Positions 15,026 to 59,113 of a DNA stretch of 64,000 nt are shown here, in pieces. Each line of letters begins with the position of its first letter. Positions within the stretch are counted from its first letter, which is position 1. Source of the DNA: a virus. The stretch lies in the UHGV virus genome UHGV-0390448. The stretch is one strand, 5' to 3'. A model generated the notes under the pieces. The model worked only from the letters and a program-made list of their open reading frames with translations, did no database searches and was not told the origin of the DNA. A program made the position numbers and the translations under genes.

Positions 15026-16681
15026 TCAACGCATCAGGATTGGTTTGCCGAGGATTCGACGAGCAGTGCCTGTTGGACACACGGACCATTCCACTTCCCA
15101 CAAGTCGATGTCTTTTTGAGTTACCTTGACCACATAAGGGTCAGAACCTTGAGATTCATCGCGTGGTGTAACCAGCGCACCAGCCGCATAAAAACGGTCC
15201 AGAAGATCTGTCAGTGCGTTAGTCAGACTTTCCTGCGTTACGCCATCAGGTTCATGCTTGATTGCCTGAGCAACTTCATAGAAATTGCGGGCAATTGCAT
15301 TCATCAGTGATGAAACGTGCTGGAATCGCAGATAGTTATTTTTGCTGTATGTCGTCAGGGAGTCGTCGATGTAGACAGAACCATCCGCTGCAACGCTTAC
15401 AGGGTTAATACGAGCGGTCACATACGCTTCACGATCGATTGTGCCAATCCCGGAGAGTCTGGTGATGTTCTGGCGATCAATGATTGCGCGAGACAGACCA
15501 GCCGGGGCGTAATGCCAGCCGCCTACATCAGACACAAGCGCAACGCCTTTAGCTTTTGCCACAAATGCGTCGCAACTGATTCCGTAAACCACATTCATAC
15601 CGCTGAAAGTGTCACGGCATGAGTACGGGAAGTGATAACGTGCAGCCTGGTGGGATTTGCCGAAACCATGTGATTTAGCTTCCGCGATAGCGTTATCACC
15701 AGTCTGAGCACATTTCAGGTCGTAGAACATATCCACGCGAACGTCTTCTGCCAGCGAATTAATTTTTGCCAGCACGGATGCGTCGTAGCAGCCCATAGAA
15801 AGCAGCGCGGTATAATTAACTTCTGACGCTTCGAGAACCTCTAACGCTTTCAGATAATCATCAGTGTCAATTGAGGACAGATCGCCATCTGTACCGCCTT
15901 CAAACGCTACATCTTCGAAAGTCAGCAAGTGAGCGGAGTCTTCGGCACCATCAGCCAGTACAGCTCCAAGCCTGGTGGACTGACTTTCTAACAATGCAGG
16001 AATCCATGCTGGCTGGCCCATATCGTTCGTTGCATCCGGATCGAAAGAAACCTGGTAGCTTTCCAGCGTTTCTACAGAACCATCGGTCTGTGTCTCTTTC
16101 AGTTCCAGAGTGAACAGGTCATTTTCTTCGTCCTCACGGGTCAGTGATAACGTGCGGTTTGTCGAAGCATCACCGTCCTTTATGTAGAAAATAGCCAATT
16201 CACTGCCGGAAATTTCAGGTGTTTCGCTTGCAGCGAAAGTTACCGGAGAAGTGGCTCCAGAAACGGCACGAACGGTCAGTGTATCGCCGATATTTACCGT
16301 TGCTTCGGTCGGAGCAATTTGCAGAGTTTTTGCTGACTTGGTGCTTTTCGACCTGGCCTGAACAGAAACGGCAATACCCGGTACTTTCATGTCTTTTGCG
16401 CATACGCGAACCACATAACCGGTGCCGCCTTTTACTGCGCGTTCAACGTGGCGATATGGTTCAAATGCGGCCCCGGTGCGCGGGTGAAGAGGTGAACCTA
16501 ACACGCTCTGATAGTTGGCTGCTGTAACCTGCAAAACCTTGCCTGGTGCTCCTCTGCGGGAAATCACCAGCCCGGCAAAGACGGAAGTACCGCCAGATGT
16601 GTTGGACAGAGTAGCATCGGCATTTACGTCCGCTACCGCAACGCCCGCCGCCTGACCAACAGAAAAACCAATTTTATTCAT
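15026..16681 (-). CDS. Contractile tail sheath protein
   Basis: 551 aa; C-terminal region has the PAG...INPV...DGSVYIDDSLTT pattern that parallels the conserved sheath C-terminal domain (T4 gp18-like PAGY...INPV...DGYV). Confidence 0.55.
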   Translation of the reverse strand: MNKIGFSVGQAAGVAVADVNADATLSNTSGGTSVFAGLVISRRGAPGKVLQVTAANYQSVLGSPLHPRTGAAFEPYRHVERAVKGGTGYVVRVCAKDMKVPGIAVSVQARSKSTKSAKTLQIAPTEATVNIGDTLTVRAVSGATSPVTFAASETPEISGSELAIFYIKDGDASTNRTLSLTREDEENDLFTLELKETQTDGSVETLESYQVSFDPDATNDMGQPAWIPALLESQSTRLGAVLADGAEDSAHLLTFEDVAFEGGTDGDLSSIDTDDYLKALEVLEASEVNYTALLSMGCYDASVLAKINSLAEDVRVDMFYDLKCAQTGDNAIAEAKSHGFGKSHQAARYHFPYSCRDTFSGMNVVYGISCDAFVAKAKGVALVSDVGGWHYAPAGLSRAIIDRQNITRLSGIGTIDREAYVTARINPVSVAADGSVYIDDSLTTYSKNNYLRFQHVSSLMNAIARNFYEVAQAIKHEPDGVTQESLTNALTDLLDRFYAAGALVTPRDESQGSDPYVVKVTQKDIDLWEVEWSVCPTGTARRILGKPILMR

Positions 16682-48376: not shown

Positions 48377-48586
48377 ATGGCTATTGCCGCAAGTTACACC
48401 ATGCATCTCTATTGTGACTGCCGCCAGTGTACGGAAGGTGTATATCCAGTGCCAGACTTCGGTGAGTATATCGGTACGTCATGGTCTGGCTGTGCAAAAG
48501 AGGCACGTAAGGATGGCTGGCGAATAAGCAAAGACAAAACACGTGCTTTTGCGCCAGGGCATAAAGTTTTAAGGATTAACAAATGA
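48377..48586 (+). CDS. Small Cys-rich protein
   Basis: Start after RBS AAGGAGAG; contains CDCRQC. Confidence 0.35.
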   Translation: MAIAASYTMHLYCDCRQCTEGVYPVPDFGEYIGTSWSGCAKEARKDGWRISKDKTRAFAPGHKVLRINK

Positions 48587-49521
48587 CCACTATTACCAAA
48601 GAGTTCACCAAAGAGCAGTTGATTGAGCAGGCTAAGAAGAATATTGAGGTTCTTCGAGTTGCGGTGGAAAGAGTCCCAGGCGCTTATGATGCGGCGGTTA
48701 TTCATCTCAAGCTGGCTGAAATTACGCTGGCATCGCTGGAAGCAGAGCCTGTTCTGTATCAGTCCTGCACACGCCCCACCTGGAATAGCGGAGTTCCGTG
48801 GACGGAATGGAAAGAACGTAGTCGTGAGGGCTACGAAGACGATTTGCGCTTTACAGACACGCCTGACCATGCCGGTTGGATAAACAAATGTCGAAAACTA
48901 TATACCACTCCGCCAGCACCGATAGCGTTAGAGGCCATTGAAAACGCAATTGAATATATCCGCAGTATCGCTTTTCACATCGATGAAGACGATTACCACG
49001 GCAAGCATATTGCGTATTTCATGCGACAAGCACTGGTCTGGCTGGAAGGGCATTCATGCAGCAACGACAGACAGGGTAAAGCCGAGAATCAACCAGTACG
49101 CGGCAACCAGACTGCCGAATCCAATCGCGGTAATGAGTGGACCGGCAATCCTGATATTGATAACGCCATCATCATGCTCGATCGCATAGATACGCTGGAA
49201 AGTTGCGATGATGACCGTATTGAGGCGGTTAAGGCTGTTTTGCGTAGACTGGCTGGCAACTATCCGGTAACTCCGGATGGTTGGATAAGCTGTAGTGAGC
49301 GAATGCCAGAAATGGGAGAGCGACAATGCTATGTGTTAGCAGCTGACTTTAAAAACAACTACCCACCAAACATCCCCAACACTCAGGTCGGCGTATATGG
49401 CGACTGGTTTAATGATGGCAATCCCACTTGGGATGACGGTGATGGCGAAGACCTGTATCTCAAAGAGGTAACCCACTGGATGCGGCTACCGGAACCGCCG
49501 CAGGAGGTTAACCGTGGCTAA
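48583..49521 (+). CDS. Hypothetical protein
   Basis: 312-aa ORF; ATGA overlap with the upstream gene. Confidence 0.45.
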   Translation: MTTITKEFTKEQLIEQAKKNIEVLRVAVERVPGAYDAAVIHLKLAEITLASLEAEPVLYQSCTRPTWNSGVPWTEWKERSREGYEDDLRFTDTPDHAGWINKCRKLYTTPPAPIALEAIENAIEYIRSIAFHIDEDDYHGKHIAYFMRQALVWLEGHSCSNDRQGKAENQPVRGNQTAESNRGNEWTGNPDIDNAIIMLDRIDTLESCDDDRIEAVKAVLRRLAGNYPVTPDGWISCSERMPEMGERQCYVLAADFKNNYPPNIPNTQVGVYGDWFNDGNPTWDDGDGEDLYLKEVTHWMRLPEPPQEVNRG

Positions 49522-53894: not shown

Positions 53895-53929
53895 AAAGAA
53901 GCCCGCTCAACCAGGCGGGCTTCCTACTA

Positions 53930-55036
53930 TCACTCAATGATTTTTTCTGCTGTCAGCCAGCTAATTTCTTGCCTGTCTTTCGGCGGTTTTAGCATGTGGG
54001 CGTATTCAGCGACATTCTCCCACGGAATTGTTTTTGCCCACTCAACGATAGCATTGTGATCTGCAGTGAAGAGTGGAATGGTGTGCGATTTCAACCACTC
54101 TAATGTTGTAACGCCATGTTTTTTTGCGTGGTGCTGTGCATGATGCCGGGCTATCACTTGTAATGGCATTGTCCATTCACTACCATCAGGCATCGAAAAG
54201 CGCATTGTTTTCGGCATATCTGATTCAAGAACAGCCTCCCGAATACCCGGGAACTCACCAAGAACCATGCGACGGTAATCATCGCCGATTTTACCACCAT
54301 ACATTTCTGCAATCCCATCAAGATAATCTTGAGTAAGCAGAGGTGATTCTTCTGCGTTCAGCTTGATGGCTGTATAAATACCACATGGATTTTCTTCAGT
54401 TTTTGCACGACCATGATGGGAATCGTAAAAGTGTCCATGTTCCTCCTCTGGAGGAGCGGACATTAAAAGTATACGTGAATCGTCACTCACTAAAGATGCT
54501 CTTAACATCCCGAATAGCCGATAGCTTACAAGAGCCGCGTCCATAACAATGATCAAAAGATGTTCAGCATAATATCCGGCTACATCTTCCTCATAATTTA
54601 GGCGATATGGTTTAATTTCGCAGCCCCAAGATTTTTGGTAACGATGATTGAGGCCATTTTGGTCGATTTGAAAATACTCTCCCAGTAATGGCGCTTTTGT
54701 ATTAGCTTTCTCCCAATACATATTCATGAGTGAGAGAGTTACCATTCCATTACGCTCAAAGTCTGGAGCGACCATGACCGTTTTAGACTCAGGCATCAGG
54801 ATCGTATAAAGGATACAAATGATAGCCAGAGCAGACTTATGTCCTATCCCAGTCGGTGTGGTAACGCTGACTGCTGAACCTTTTTGTTGAATCGCTTCAA
54901 CAATTAATTTTTGCTGGTGGGTTAACTTAACCCCCATCAACTCTTCTGCTGCTAATGCCCAGTCATGGCTATATTTGCTTACCAGCTCTCTCCACTCTGG
55001 TAATTCGGTGATGTTTTTAGGCGTCAGCATCAGCAT
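53930..55036 (-). CDS. Terminase-large-subunit ATPase-domain paralog with degenerate Walker motifs and no nuclease domain
   Basis: 368 aa, collinear with the first ~240 aa of the PacB-like terminase (shared AEHLL.I, MLSQPTRPSGYFYESHH vs LLMSAPPEEEHGHFYDSHH, NPEGVWTAIVLNSEESP vs NPCGIYTAIKLNAEESP), but Walker A reads PTGIGHKS and Walker B IIVMDAA (no DE); C-terminal 130 aa unrelated. Confidence 0.6.
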   Translation of the reverse strand: MLMLTPKNITELPEWRELVSKYSHDWALAAEELMGVKLTHQQKLIVEAIQQKGSAVSVTTPTGIGHKSALAIICILYTILMPESKTVMVAPDFERNGMVTLSLMNMYWEKANTKAPLLGEYFQIDQNGLNHRYQKSWGCEIKPYRLNYEEDVAGYYAEHLLIIVMDAALVSYRLFGMLRASLVSDDSRILLMSAPPEEEHGHFYDSHHGRAKTEENPCGIYTAIKLNAEESPLLTQDYLDGIAEMYGGKIGDDYRRMVLGEFPGIREAVLESDMPKTMRFSMPDGSEWTMPLQVIARHHAQHHAKKHGVTTLEWLKSHTIPLFTADHNAIVEWAKTIPWENVAEYAHMLKPPKDRQEISWLTAEKIIE

Positions 55037-55823
55037 CCTCCGCTACCTCTGCCTCCACATCTGCCGCGACTTCATCGGACTGTTCTTCTTTGGCCTGTTC
55101 TGCAATCGCCGCACGGCATTTCGCCCTGGCTGTAGCGATAGCCTCAACTTTCACGTCATTAGGAATACTTGAGGTGACATACATATCCAGTTCTTCAGCA
55201 CGGAATACTGTTTTGCCCAGGAATTCATCAAGCATCCAGGTTAAGGAAAAGTCGCAGGAAATCAGGTCTACTTCGCCTTCCGCGCCGTTTGGGAAATGGA
55301 TAAATATCTGTTTGCCCAGGCCAAGCACGCGACAAGCAGCCATCATTACTGCAAGTTCCAGGTCTTTGTTTTCACCTGCTACTGGTTGATCCACACCAGT
55401 AATAGTGCCGTTCAAATGGATATTATATGGCTGATATTTAGAGATACGTTCTACACGCCATGTGCCGGTTAAGGTTCCCTGGCGGAAGATTATCGGCGTG
55501 ACCGAAAGCGACAGCTCTCGAATGAGTTGTTGCGCTATGGCTGGGTCATACAGGGGATCTAACGCGATGCATCCATAAGACTGCGCCAGTTCAAACAATT
55601 CTTCCTGTGTGCACTGAATGCCTCTTGCCGTAATAAAACGTCTGACTCCCGTTTTTCCGTCACGCCAGATAGCAATGCCATTCTCACTATCTAACTCTTC
55701 GTCTAAGCCCAGGTATGTAAGGATGGTTCGCTCAATGGTGGCAAAGGGCAGGGACATATCATCGTTTACATCCACCAGCAGGCCGTTACGCAGGCGATAT
55801 TGAATGTTTTTGGTATTTTCCAC
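55017..55823 (-). CDS. Hypothetical protein with strongly acidic C-terminal tail
   Basis: 268 aa ending EEQSDEVAADVEAEVAEDADADA; overlaps the start of the terminase-paralog gene. Confidence 0.45.
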   Translation of the reverse strand: MENTKNIQYRLRNGLLVDVNDDMSLPFATIERTILTYLGLDEELDSENGIAIWRDGKTGVRRFITARGIQCTQEELFELAQSYGCIALDPLYDPAIAQQLIRELSLSVTPIIFRQGTLTGTWRVERISKYQPYNIHLNGTITGVDQPVAGENKDLELAVMMAACRVLGLGKQIFIHFPNGAEGEVDLISCDFSLTWMLDEFLGKTVFRAEELDMYVTSSIPNDVKVEAIATARAKCRAAIAEQAKEEQSDEVAADVEAEVAEDADADA

Positions 55824-55829
55824 GTTAAA

Positions 55830-56492
55830 TCACTCCACAACAAACCAGTCACAGGCCAGCAGGTCGCCAACTGAAGGCACCCACGGAACAACTACACCTT
55901 GTGCATTTTTTAAGGCGAAATAAGCACCATACGGAACGAGGTCGCCGGGGAAATATCCCTTAATGGCTTCCATTCGTGCCGGGTACTGTCCTTCAGGAAC
56001 CAGCCAGCAGAATTGGTTTTCGCCGTTCCACCCGCGTCGAGCAACTTTCTTGCCATCCTTCAGCCACATCAGCGCGTCAGAAAAGTCGGCTGCTTCAAGG
56101 TCGATTTCTTCTTGTAGAGTAGCGATACCGCCAGCAGAAATAGTTACGTCCCTGGCTGTAATGAATGTCACCCCATTGTGACCTTCAATGCTGAGCAATG
56201 TCCCATTTTCGAAGGCGTCGTTAACCCGGCTATAGCATTTTTCAAATGCTTTCTCTGGCACATAGACCAGATAGCCATTTTCAGCAGTGACGAGATATCC
56301 TCCTATTTGCGGGCGGAATTTTTCCAAGAACACACCATCAACACGAAGCGTCATTCCTTTTGGCTCAACGACTTCGATACTGCCAAAAATGGGCGCATAA
56401 TCTTCGCCGACAATAACAATATCTTTGATTTTCGATGCCCGAATGATGCTGTGGCATTTGTATTTGGGGAACACCTGAAAAGTGCTGACCAT
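55830..56492 (-). CDS. Two-domain protein with C-terminal DUF2829 (Tad2-like) domain
   Basis: C-terminal ~85 aa (FSDALMWLKDGKKVARRGWNGENQF...VPYGAYFALKNAQGVVVPWVPSVGDLLACDWFVVE) matches the DUF2829 signature; N-terminal ~130 aa unassigned. Confidence 0.55.
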   Translation of the reverse strand: MVSTFQVFPKYKCHSIIRASKIKDIVIVGEDYAPIFGSIEVVEPKGMTLRVDGVFLEKFRPQIGGYLVTAENGYLVYVPEKAFEKCYSRVNDAFENGTLLSIEGHNGVTFITARDVTISAGGIATLQEEIDLEAADFSDALMWLKDGKKVARRGWNGENQFCWLVPEGQYPARMEAIKGYFPGDLVPYGAYFALKNAQGVVVPWVPSVGDLLACDWFVVE

Positions 56493-56506
56493 AATCCTTC
56501 CTCTAC

Positions 56507-57001
56507 TTAAAACTTTTCGTACTGAAGCGGTGTACGCTTGATTTCAACGCGGCCTTCCGATGTGCTACCAAAACCACCAGCACCTCGCTCTGTTTCATCG
56601 AGTTCATCAACTTCTACCAGCGATACCGGTTCAACACGCTCAAAAATGCCTTGCATGACCGCCATTCCAGGCTTGAGGCAAACACCTTCACCACCGGGAT
56701 CTGTAATCAGTTTTGCCATGATTTCACCGCGATAATCGGCGTCGATAATTCCTACGCAGTTAGCCAGGCGCGTATGCTTTTTGCAGCCCAATCCGGAACG
56801 AGGATAAAGTTTCAGACACCAACCAGGAGGGATCGCCATAGCGAGGCCGGTATGCACCCACCAGCTTGAGGAAATAGCGCCATTGCTATCGATACCAGGC
56901 GTTATTTCAACAGCAACAAAATCCATCGCCGCCGATCCGGCGGTGGCGTAAACGGGGAGTTTTGCCGCCGGATGAAGGCGTTTCACTTTCACGTTAATCA
57001 T
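56507..57001 (-). CDS. dut: dUTP diphosphatase (dUTPase)
   Basis: 164 aa; LPVYATAGSAAMDF, RSGLG, IDADYRGE and C-terminal GFGSTS motifs collinear with E. coli Dut. Confidence 0.8.
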   Translation of the reverse strand: MINVKVKRLHPAAKLPVYATAGSAAMDFVAVEITPGIDSNGAISSSWWVHTGLAMAIPPGWCLKLYPRSGLGCKKHTRLANCVGIIDADYRGEIMAKLITDPGGEGVCLKPGMAVMQGIFERVEPVSLVEVDELDETERGAGGFGSTSEGRVEIKRTPLQYEKF

Positions 57002-57486
57002 TGCTTTTTAGCTCTCCGGGTAAATGTATAAATCCGGCGTTTGATATGCGGAGCGGTCGGAACGGAGACGCAGGTATTCTCGATAACACCTTGCTCCTCC
57101 AGCGATCGCACAGCACGCAAGAACTGTGATGCATCGCCACCGCCAGATAGCCAGAATTTGCGGGCATAGACGCTGCCATTACGGATAATTTCTGCGATCA
57201 CCCGCGCTTGCGTCTGGCTTTCTCGATAGCCAAAGAGTTCTCTTGCCTCTCCTTGTGGGATAGCCAACTGATAGCCTTTCCCGCTACGGTGACGGACAAA
57301 ACCGTGAGCAATGAGGTTCTTCAGCTCATTTCGGGTGCGGATACACCCGTACTCAGGGAACTGTGTGTTGATATCACCAGGCTTATGCCATTCATCAGGG
57401 CTATCAGCCAGGAGGGACAGAAGTTTCCCTGACAGCTCAGGATTAGTGGTTGGATAGCAGTTCAGGGATGGGTAGTAAGTTTTCAT
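56998..57486 (-). CDS. Hypothetical protein
   Basis: 162-aa ORF, ATGA-overlapped on both sides within the operon downstream of the recombinase. Confidence 0.4.
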   Translation of the reverse strand: MKTYYPSLNCYPTTNPELSGKLLSLLADSPDEWHKPGDINTQFPEYGCIRTRNELKNLIAHGFVRHRSGKGYQLAIPQGEARELFGYRESQTQARVIAEIIRNGSVYARKFWLSGGGDASQFLRAVRSLEEQGVIENTCVSVPTAPHIKRRIYTFTRRAKKQ

Positions 57487-57827
57487 TTGCGCCCCCTTGC
57501 CGGATAGCGCCCGGCATTTGCATCAGGGGCAATGAAGCCGCTGGTGGGGCGAGTGAAAACATGGTTAATTTTCTCGGTCATAGCGCGATAATTTTCCTGA
57601 TAGTGGGCCAGGAGTTTTTCAGCAGCAATGACGGTTACTTTCCGGACGTAGCGTTCAGCTTCCTCCAGATTTCGCCAGTTTTTTTCGAGGGTAAACACGG
57701 GAACGGCATCAAGTCCGGTCATAACACCGAACACCACGACCGCCTGGTCGCGCTTAACGCCCGCAGTGAAGGTTATGGTGTAACCGTCAACAGTGAAGCG
57801 TTTTGATTCCGTAATACGATTGTGCAA
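57483..57827 (-). CDS. Hypothetical protein, first gene of the operator-controlled operon
   Basis: 114-aa ORF; tandem operator-like sites 57870-57900 lie about 60 nt upstream. Confidence 0.4.
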   Translation of the reverse strand: MHNRITESKRFTVDGYTITFTAGVKRDQAVVVFGVMTGLDAVPVFTLEKNWRNLEEAERYVRKVTVIAAEKLLAHYQENYRAMTEKINHVFTRPTSGFIAPDANAGRYPARGRK

Positions 57828-57869
57828 AGTACCCTCCGCAATAGGCGAGGGTACTTTACATTAAAATGC

Positions 57870-57900
57870 ACTGTCTAAAAAGATTGTTAGAAAATTAATT
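57870..57900. promoter_or_regulatory. Tandem operator-like sites between the recombinase gene and the downstream operon
   Basis: actgtctaaaaag + attgttagaaaattaatt; the second is a full match to the TGTTAGAAAAYTAA family. Confidence 0.55.
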
Positions 57901-58928
57901 CAGGAATCCATCAGGCGACTATTTGCACCAACGGATGCCCCGCTACGGCGCAAATATCGCATAAGTGTTTCGGGCTTTTTCCATGTGCCTTCCTGCATGA
58001 TCTCGACCATTGACACCTGTTTCTCAGCCATATCAATTGCCGCACCAACACGCGCACTATGACCTGTCCACGTCCGGTATCTTCCTTTGTTCGGCGTGGC
58101 ATCTCGCTTATTCAGCAATCCCCAGGCATCGCTGAATATTTTCTCCATCGCAGGAGCAGTAAGAGGCGTTGTCGTGATTCTGGCTTTATTACTGCGGTGT
58201 ATTGGCGGGAATAGCACCGCGTCCGGATGTTCACGAAGTCCGGACACCTCCAGCCAGTCGTTTAGCACGGCGGTAGTGCAACGAGAAAGCACCTTATCAA
58301 GTCCGGCGGCGGTCGTGATGGTCTTCGTGTGTGAAATATGCAGCGTTACAGTGTCACCTGTTTGGTCCAGATCTCCGACACGGATGCGCGAGATTTCTGA
58401 CATACGCATCAGGGTATTGTATGCCACGAAGAGAAACGCCCGATTGCGCAGGTCCACCAGCCGCTCGGAACGGGACAGCAATACGTCGAGCAATTTCAGA
58501 TCATCCCACCGCAACGGTATAGCCTGGCCTGTACGCTCGCCTTTTTCCGTTGCCGCTTCGCGCCGGATGCGCCGCATGGCCAGAGATACACTTTTATCGT
58601 CTGACAGCGGCGGTAGGCCGCATTGCGAAAGCAGCATGTTAAGCATGGCATAGTGCTTATCAATGGTGGTCGAAGCCAGATCGGCTTCATGCAACTGGAG
58701 AAGATACTCGCGGGCCATTTCCGGCGTAATCGGGAACCAGGGGCGCTGGCGCGAATTACACCACCGCGCCCAGGAATGAAAGACCAGACGGAGATCACGA
58801 AGTGTATTTGGGGCATAAGCTCCCTGGTCGTTCATGAACTGCATAAAGTTTTTTGCAGCTTCCTGGTATTCGGTGCCAATATCGCGCAGAAAACCGCCAG
58901 AACCGCCGGAGATAACTAGTTCACCCAT
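57900..58928 (-). CDS. Cre-family tyrosine recombinase (Dre-like)
   Basis: 342 aa, collinear with P1 Cre (WFP..PE..R.YLL.L, VSL.MRRIR, IRNLAF..AYNTL.R..EI.RIRV.D, W.GHSARVGAA.DMA, EIMQ.G.W, .Y.R.); about 45-50 percent identity by eye; catalytic R/H/R/W/Y positions conserved. Confidence 0.9.
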   Translation of the reverse strand: MGELVISGGSGGFLRDIGTEYQEAAKNFMQFMNDQGAYAPNTLRDLRLVFHSWARWCNSRQRPWFPITPEMAREYLLQLHEADLASTTIDKHYAMLNMLLSQCGLPPLSDDKSVSLAMRRIRREAATEKGERTGQAIPLRWDDLKLLDVLLSRSERLVDLRNRAFLFVAYNTLMRMSEISRIRVGDLDQTGDTVTLHISHTKTITTAAGLDKVLSRCTTAVLNDWLEVSGLREHPDAVLFPPIHRSNKARITTTPLTAPAMEKIFSDAWGLLNKRDATPNKGRYRTWTGHSARVGAAIDMAEKQVSMVEIMQEGTWKKPETLMRYLRRSGASVGANSRLMDS

Positions 58929-59079
58929 GAAACTATTAAACCTCTATATACAGATGACGCTACGTGAAAAATAGAAAACTGACAGGGTAGTTATAAGTTA
59001 ATTTTCAAAATTCAAGCCTTTGATTCGAGGCATGATTTTTCATCCTTGTCAATACTACCTGTTTACTGGAGATTATAGC

Positions 59080-59113
59080 CTAACTTTAAATAATGCCAAT
59101 TATTTAAAGTTAG
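59080..59113. other. lox-type recombination site (rox-like): 13-bp inverted arms around an 8-bp spacer
   Basis: cTAACTTTAAATA-ATGCCAAT-TATTTAAAGTTAg; arms are perfect inverted repeats and share TAACTT...ATA with loxP arms; the 32-bp core equals the rox sequence as I recall it; 150 bp upstream of the recombinase gene. Confidence 0.85.

Follow-up and report, generated by a model that had tools for sequence, protein, structure and literature searches.

UHGV-0390448, a phage-plasmid of the D6/P1 type analysed here as one window (the whole stretch of 64,000 nucleotides), carries on its minus strand a gene at 55830-56492 whose product is most likely a working sponge against the Thoeris defence system, equipped with an accessory module of putative anti-defence role. 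The C-terminal 85 residues form a Tad2-family domain of the ModTad2 clade, and structure prediction gives a flexible linker of about 40 residues that joins this sponge to an independently folding OB-fold module of the type found in Dec, the capsid-binding protein of phage L. An earlier sequence-only reading, which gave no strand, had described the gene as a DUF2829 (Tad2-like) domain behind an unknown N-terminal domain of 130 amino acids. The parts of the gene are as follows.

55830..56492, minus strand: complete open reading frame (ORF) of 220 amino acids plus stop, comprising OB-fold module, linker and Tad2-like domain (ORF list and translation)
56211..56483, minus strand: N-terminal OB-fold module, residues 4-94, homologous to the capsid-binding OB domain of phage L Dec
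56088..56210, minus strand: linker, residues 95-135; a beta-hairpin is predicted at 99-112, followed by residues of low confidence
55836..56087, minus strand: Tad2-like (DUF2829, PF11195) domain of the ModTad2 clade, residues 136-219 (Pfam, PDB sequence matches, Foldseek)
56495..56503, minus strand: Shine-Dalgarno-like GAGGAAGGA, 2 nucleotides 5' of the ATG and 3 nucleotides past the dUTPase stop (read from the sequence)

The ORF is single and uninterrupted, with its ATG at 56492, and PHROG 872 spans residues 3-220 of the 220-residue protein (E=2.9e-52). The sequence-only reading had recognised the C-terminal domain by its motifs (KVARRGWNG ... VPWVPSVGDLLACDWFVVE), which are found in the translation, and had proposed a profile search and a structure prediction; both bore out the assignment. 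PF11195, the 'Thoeris anti-defense 2-like domain' and formerly DUF2829, matched residues 136-219 over profile positions 2-73 of 73 with E=1.6e-22 and 80.3 bits against a cut-off of 25, far beyond chance, while the NCBIfam scan returned zero matches for the Tad2 gene or its neighbours. The closest solved sequences were those of ModTad2 (8v3e, apo; 9eib, with histidine-ADP-ribose [hisADPR]), aligned at E~8e-21 and 45% identity over 89 columns with one 1-residue gap, and this alignment runs through the clade-specific insertion after beta2. We then predicted the full-length structure with AlphaFold2 from an alignment of 143 sequences. A Foldseek search with the model pointed to the Tad2 fold (alpha1, then the antiparallel sheet with the alpha2/alpha3 loops): it yielded 24 chains at E<=0.001, all of which belong to the Tad2 family (ModTad2, SPO1 Tad2, HgmTad2/AcrIIA7 and SptTad2); the best was 9eib, ModTad2 with its ligand, at 47% identity.

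The ligand pocket was compared with that of SPO1 Tad2, whose core consists of W25, N26, W73, S76 and D79 (bioRxiv 10.1101/2023.05.01.538930). All five residues are identical in the alignment, as W155, N156, W204, S207 and D210. Inhibition of type II Thoeris through His-ADPR binding has been reported for ModTad2 and for related proteins from Tatumella and Clostridium (bioRxiv 10.1101/2024.01.03.573942). The likeness in sequence suggests that the window protein is a functional sponge and that His-ADPR would be its most probable ligand. Selection on the Tad2 half is in keeping with a maintained activity: its codons differ from those of five relatives by 7-10 synonymous and 0-1 nonsynonymous changes, with a ratio of nonsynonymous to synonymous rates (dN/dS) of 0-0.04, and the domain is under strong purifying selection. 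Over this half, the relatives compared share 95.9-97.0% DNA identity and differ by at most one amino acid.

A target other than Thoeris was also considered for this domain, since in some Tad2 homologues (HgmTad2/AcrIIA7 and SptTad2) a second pocket takes up cGG and related molecules (PDB 8kbk, 8wjd), and ModTad2 too has that additional pocket (bioRxiv 10.1101/2024.01.03.573942). The window protein might then act on cyclic oligonucleotides, as in CBASS or type III CRISPR, or as an anti-CRISPR, the role first ascribed to AcrIIA7. We regard this as improbable. The matches to AcrIIA7/HgmTad2, SptTad2 and SPO1 Tad2 lie at E 1e-9 to 1e-12 (SPO1 Tad2: E=1e-9, 36% identity), with long gaps except in SPO1 Tad2, and those to AcrIIA7/HgmTad2 and SptTad2 are far weaker than the ModTad2 match (8e-21); the core residues of the ADP-ribose pocket are conserved in the window protein; and binding was never shown to be part of the anti-Cas9 activity of DUF2829.

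The N-terminal part is only partly the unknown 130-residue domain of the sequence-only reading. Pfam and NCBIfam scans of it indeed gave no match, so that 'unknown' was fair on the sequence by itself, and PF13876, PF21825 and PF24729 in particular do not match it, but it resolves into an OB-fold of about 90 residues and a linker of about 40. In the full-length model residues 1-90, and with them the OB-fold module (residues ~4-94), were predicted with a predicted local distance difference test (pLDDT) score of ~95, and modelled alone the module scored 90.5, whereas linker residues 96-136 fell below 50-57. The order of its elements (b0, b1, b2, b3, helix, b4, b5, helix) is the one that nuclear magnetic resonance (NMR) gave for the Dec OB-fold (PMC6449081). 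In sequence, the profile of the OB family matched Dec (6e3c) in PDB with E=1.9e-5, hhalign aligned family and Dec over 81 columns with 96.5% probability and E=1e-9, and pairwise BLASTP to Dec gave E=8e-9 over residues 59-119, where ITARDVTIS of the linker is aligned with STARTITLT, the start of the Dec spike. By sequence and by structure, the OB module is homologous to the Dec OB-fold.

This homology raises the question of whether the N-terminal region is itself a Dec-like capsid-binding module, an OB-fold with a spike remnant that tethers the sponge to the phage head. The extent of the homology, which reaches the TAR-x-(V/I)-T motif at the spike start, and the identical order of secondary structure would suit such a role, as would the fact that the window allele, like Dec, is without the YEDGYxSYSP consensus of the family. 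Most of what we found speaks against it, and we rate it as very unlikely. The trimeric beta-helix spike of the Dec C-terminus was not found; the putative stalk is one short TARDVTIS motif at pLDDT <57, after which Tad2 follows. A trimer of the Dec type would clash in symmetry with a Tad2 tetramer, and a protein on the capsid exterior stays outside the cell, while a sponge must be cytoplasmic and abundant. Dec residues K30 and Y49, which matter for capsid binding (PMC6449081), align to V26 and R50, although the capsids differ and this is only suggestive. Finally, the gene lies in a recombinase-dUTPase string rather than in a head operon, and the family members of other phages lie in accessory regions. 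A member in Ralstonia phage GP4, gp05, is encoded between the portal and major head genes and was considered as the capsid cement protein, but the solved cement protein of that phage is a different, Ig-like protein, gp1. The label 'capsid decoration protein' of Pseudomonas phage Dolphis gp96 looks like annotation by homology, because its gene lies in a block of small hypothetical genes.

How widespread the module is depended on the search. A word-indexed search with the N-terminal 134 residues found close enterobacterial relatives only, and the wider family was reached by an exhaustive search of 1.84 billion representatives, which returned 951 proteins at E<=1e-3; a profile search of a 5.8-billion-sequence collection gave 3250 clusters at E<=1e-5. 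Nearly all of the best 120 of these 3250 clusters are single-domain proteins of 84-100 amino acids that carry neither names nor Pfam domains. The OB module is covered by no Pfam or NCBIfam model, and the PHROG families that it matched are of unknown function. The family consensus reads LPxYxCHKxVxAxKI ... KHxPxxGGYxVxYEDGYxSYSPAxAFExGYT. Stand-alone members are encoded in blocks of small accessory genes and not in head modules; among their neighbours are genes for DNA methyltransferases, MazG and YopX, and once an Acb2/Tad1-like gene. In three proteins (P0053, P0062 and P0191) two OB modules stand in tandem in one polypeptide, an arrangement compatible with a dimer as the functional unit. One further candidate, the repetitive 2543-residue protein P0050 with 10 matched stretches, was not recovered by an iterative search with hidden Markov models and was treated as a compositional or repeat artefact.

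The company that the module keeps was examined through the Pfam domains in the rest of the protein for 143 OB family members. Partners were found in the following numbers.

Tad2-like domain: 9 of the 143 members, query included
PF21825 (Sequestin): 9 of the 143
Acb2/Tad1 hairpin: 2 of the 143
T7 gp5.9 RecBCD inhibitor: 1 of the 143
DUF551: 1 of the 143
DUF7130: 1 of the 143

Those with a functional name in Pfam belong to anti-defence families only (worked examples of the fusions are P0194, P0180, P0174 and P0067). A Pfam scan of 20 non-OB parts returned four named partners; all-against-all BLAST of the non-OB parts produced almost only singletons and could not classify the partner modules. The Tad2-bearing architecture itself also occurs in distant phages (SopranoGao, at 41.7% identity, and P0052, P0061, P0141, P0143 and P0170). 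DUF551, the partner in P0067, is present elsewhere in the window, at the C-terminus of a 312-residue protein encoded at 48583-49521 on the plus strand (E=3e-19).

The sister Klebsiella phages SopranoGao and LASTA illustrate these fusions. Their proteins gp55 (L003:3986-4582) and gp52 (L017:1486-2361), respectively, are encoded at a syntenic locus and share an OB module that is ~96% identical over residues 1-82; behind it SopranoGao has Tad2 and LASTA a middle domain followed by Sequestin (PF21825). The payload has been swapped behind a constant OB module. Precedents exist for such combinations. Sequestin is a sponge for 3'cADPR that was discovered through its fusion to Tad2 and Acb4, Tad2 is often fused (to Acb4, and in 60 cases to PF21825), and a fused Acb4-Tad2 protein is experimentally active (bioRxiv 10.1101/2025.07.12.664507). 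Taken together, the fusions of the family argue strongly, if circumstantially, that the OB module is part of the anti-defence toolkit, and they lend indirect support to the plausible idea of the sequence-only reading that the N-terminus may add a second binding or targeting function. The middle domain of LASTA gp52 (~110-205) has no Pfam match and carries a motif that echoes GGYLVxYEDGYxSYSPxxFExGY of the OB family; going by this motif, it may be a distant paralogous small barrel.

On these grounds we propose, as an explanation that we consider on balance probable, that the window gene encodes a two-module anti-defence protein, in which a Tad2 tetramer sequesters the Thoeris signal and the OB module contributes a second binding function against another host target. 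The Tad2 domain would assemble into the usual Tad2 homotetramer and, in the cytoplasm, take up the ADP-ribose-derived signal made by Thoeris TIR proteins, most likely the His-ADPR of type II Thoeris and possibly glycocyclic ADP-ribose (gcADPR) too. With the signal sequestered, the ThsA effector would never be switched on, and the element could infect, or persist in, enterobacteria that carry Thoeris. The OB module would be a portable partner of anti-defence payloads, a separate binder of some other host protein or small molecule, and would probably be dispensable for the sponge activity itself.

The most serious competitor of this two-module proposal is that the protein is a plain Tad2 sponge, whose OB module is passive or decaying and has at most a role in folding, solubility or spacing. 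It draws its strength from the local history of the gene. Among the relatives, the gene is a mosaic of three divergent OB alleles (~70-75% DNA identity), two linker alleles and a single Tad2 half that hardly varies; in phage D6 the homologue orf114 (L002:2594-3034, 146 residues) has a clean in-frame deletion of the OB core (KAHK|...|KNGTT), with linker and Tad2 intact; it is a natural N-terminal deletion of one OB allele. The OB codons evolve at dN/dS 0.43-0.54 between alleles and, with 3-9 nonsynonymous against 1 synonymous change within the window-type allele, at about 1 or more within it, versus <=0.04 for Tad2. The window allele has moreover lost 8 of the 28 family positions conserved at >=80% (K15S, V17I, H59F, Y70A, D72N, S76V, S78V and G86C), exceeding each of the 106 other OB members examined (maximum 6, mean 1.5); Dec departs at 14 conserved positions, largely the same ones. 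Because the conserved site of the family is altered, the specificity of the OB module may have shifted or weakened in this allele.

These observations weigh against the two-module proposal, and several others must be added to them. The D6 deletion and the fast evolution of the OB half fit a dispensable or decaying module as well as a fast-evolving one; fusion to anti-defence modules is guilt by association; and the Foldseek matches of the OB module fold include no solved sponge. On the side of the sponge, pLDDT for the Tad2 half of the full-length model was moderate (50-84), residues of SPO1 Tad2 that contact adenine or water differ here (I63L, T65N, D67Q, H71V and T78G), and ligand specificity within Tad2 is not readable from 45% identity. 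Nevertheless, we judge a merely passive or decaying module to be unlikely, if still a serious contender. The reading frame is intact in 183 plasmids in which the match covers >=80% of the gene, the OB fold is still predicted with high confidence, and a dN/dS of ~0.45 lies below neutrality. The OB-Tad2 architecture has also been kept in the distant phages named above, and the OB module has been retained while its payloads were swapped, which argues that it does something.

The gene is common in this type of element. The sequence-only reading had called the fusion unusual, given that stand-alone Tad2 proteins are about 90 residues long; the length is right (SPO1 Tad2 has 89), but in the sense of rare the word was an overstatement, since the same coding sequence is present in 229 PLSDB plasmids from Escherichia, Salmonella, Shigella and one Klebsiella (the 183 with an intact frame are among these), and other Tad2 fusions are reported to be frequent. 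In the PLSDB records listed, it is annotated as 'DUF2829 domain-containing protein'. Three PLSDB hits (H122-H124) match only bases 25-496, which encode the OB module, the linker and the initial third of Tad2; in these plasmids the 3' part is diverged or replaced. A survey of 2025 found 'Tad2 AcrIIA7 (anti-Thoeris)' in 93% of D6-like and 56% of P1-like phage-plasmids (bioRxiv 10.1101/2025.09.12.675607), and the presence of a Tad2 gene in such elements is thus already known.

Direct homologues are J46_0048 of the P1-like phage SJ46, D6 orf114 and genes of P1/D6-type plasmids annotated by the Prokaryotic Genome Annotation Pipeline (PGAP), and an isaA-like neighbour is common to all. In SJ46 the order is ssb, Tad2 gene, isaA, and phage P1 has no Tad2 gene, with isaA straight after ssb. 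We considered P1 isaB as a remnant of the Tad2 gene and rejected it, as P1 is simply without the gene. About 55 N-terminal codons (VQTPTKARTRKQTPK...) are identical in SJ46 J46_0048 (L001:3806-4651) and P1 isaA (L004:3570-4532). Since they precede two different genes, both annotated starts appear over-extended into a shared leader downstream of ssb, and the 281-residue SJ46 annotation is probably too long by this stretch. In P1, the shared leader lies under the C1-controlled ssb promoters. In phage RCS47 (FO818745.1 / NC_042128.1, ~15531-15950), only the N-terminal part is left, annotated 'part 1' and abutting an inverted repeat, which suggests that a mobile element has interrupted this copy.

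The surroundings of the gene resemble those in phage D6, which aligns at ~80% identity over 87% of window positions 55000-58000. As in D6, the order is a cre-like recombinase gene (dre), two small ORFs, dUTPase, the Tad2 gene and an isaA-like gene; Doc, a HumD-like peptidase and Lpa are also encoded near the Tad2 gene. The neighbouring features are listed below.

56507..57001, minus strand: dUTPase, upstream and in the same orientation (PF00692, E=7e-13; position as in phage D6)
55017..55823, minus strand: IsaA-like protein of 268 amino acids, phrog_2326, downstream; accompanies the Tad2 gene in D6-like and P1-like elements
53930..55036, minus strand: ORF of 368 amino acids, phrog_5902; overlaps the end of the isaA-like gene by 20 nucleotides and ends at a terminator-like hairpin
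59072..59099, minus strand: best sigma-70-like promoter match (11/12), upstream of the cre-like recombinase gene (consensus scan only)
53901..53916, minus strand: terminator-like hairpin right after the last co-oriented ORF, 53930-55036 (consensus scan only)

The seven genes from 58928 down to 53930 are all co-oriented, with ends that abut or overlap, and because of this arrangement of their stop and start codons an operon is a reasonable inference; the promoter-like site at 59099-59072 is a possible start of the string dre-orf-orf-dut-Tad2-isaA-orf368. The isaA-like gene at 55017-55823 gave no match in Pfam and NCBIfam scans. It lies directly 3' of the Tad2 gene both in the D6-like context (after dut; L002:3041-3817 in D6) and in the P1-like context (after ssb; L001:4658-5440 in SJ46), and as they are adjacent in both, the two genes seem to travel as a pair. 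The isaA-like gene could be another accessory or anti-defence gene. The 368-residue ORF is accessory relative to D6, as D6 holds pdcA, doc and phd at this position.

The Tad2 assignment is solid, and for D6/P1-type elements it was already known. Two points are new, to judge from the searchable literature: that the N-terminus is an OB-fold of the Dec type, and that its family is recurrently partnered with sponge and inhibitor domains. Searches of the literature for anti-defence or anti-Thoeris proteins with an OB-fold turned up nothing pertinent. The published fusion screen could not find the module because it queried Pfam families only. It is possible, and we advance it tentatively, that the Dec-type OB module constitutes a new, widespread phage anti-defence family, which would act as a sponge or inhibit a host immune protein directly. 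If so, it would have been overlooked by fusion-based sponge screens for want of a Pfam model, its fusions to Tad2, Sequestin, Acb2/Tad1 and gp5.9 would be blockers of multiple defences, and Dec would be a family member co-opted for capsid binding. The family comprises several thousand small phage proteins and has been fused repeatedly to four unrelated anti-defence families; as the same logic of 'fused to known sponge' also yielded Sequestin, it offers the next anti-defence screen a concrete and inexpensive candidate. For the D6/P1-type phage-plasmids of Escherichia coli, Shigella and Salmonella, a conserved sponge that is probably directed at Thoeris bears on the persistence of clinically common elements. 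With the homology comes a further question: by what route did one domain end up both in a capsid decoration protein and with anti-defence modules?

Among known systems, the window protein stands closest to ModTad2 (from a Myroides odoratus prophage), TmoTad2 and CcaTad2, which belong to the same Pfam family; with ModTad2 it shares 45-47% identity over the 88-residue domain with a single 1-residue gap and, unlike SPO1 Tad2, an extended segment after beta2. ModTad2 is a stand-alone protein of 89 residues, whereas the window protein adds 135 residues at its N-terminus. SPO1 Tad2 (gp34.65; 8sme/8smf/8smg), the gcADPR sponge that founded the family, agrees in fold and pocket core but shows only 36% identity and differs in its beta2-beta3 segment. 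What comes after the OB-fold is a trimeric beta-helix spike in Dec of phage L (PDB 6e3c) and Tad2 in the window protein; the Dec gene adjoins terminase genes, while the window gene sits in an accessory gene string. Of the direct homologues, SJ46 J46_0048 has a more canonical OB allele and D6 orf114 has lost the OB core. In general design, the protein resembles Acb4-Tad2 of Pasteurella phage Pm86 and the Sequestin-Tad2 and Sequestin-Acb4 fusions, which likewise combine Tad2 (or Acb4) with a second small phage module in one polypeptide. Here the partner is an OB-fold without a Pfam model, unlike Acb4 and Sequestin, and it is not a proven sponge; as in those fused sponges, however, the second module is mostly a stand-alone phage protein of ~60-100 residues, and it too is found both on its own and fused to several sponge families.

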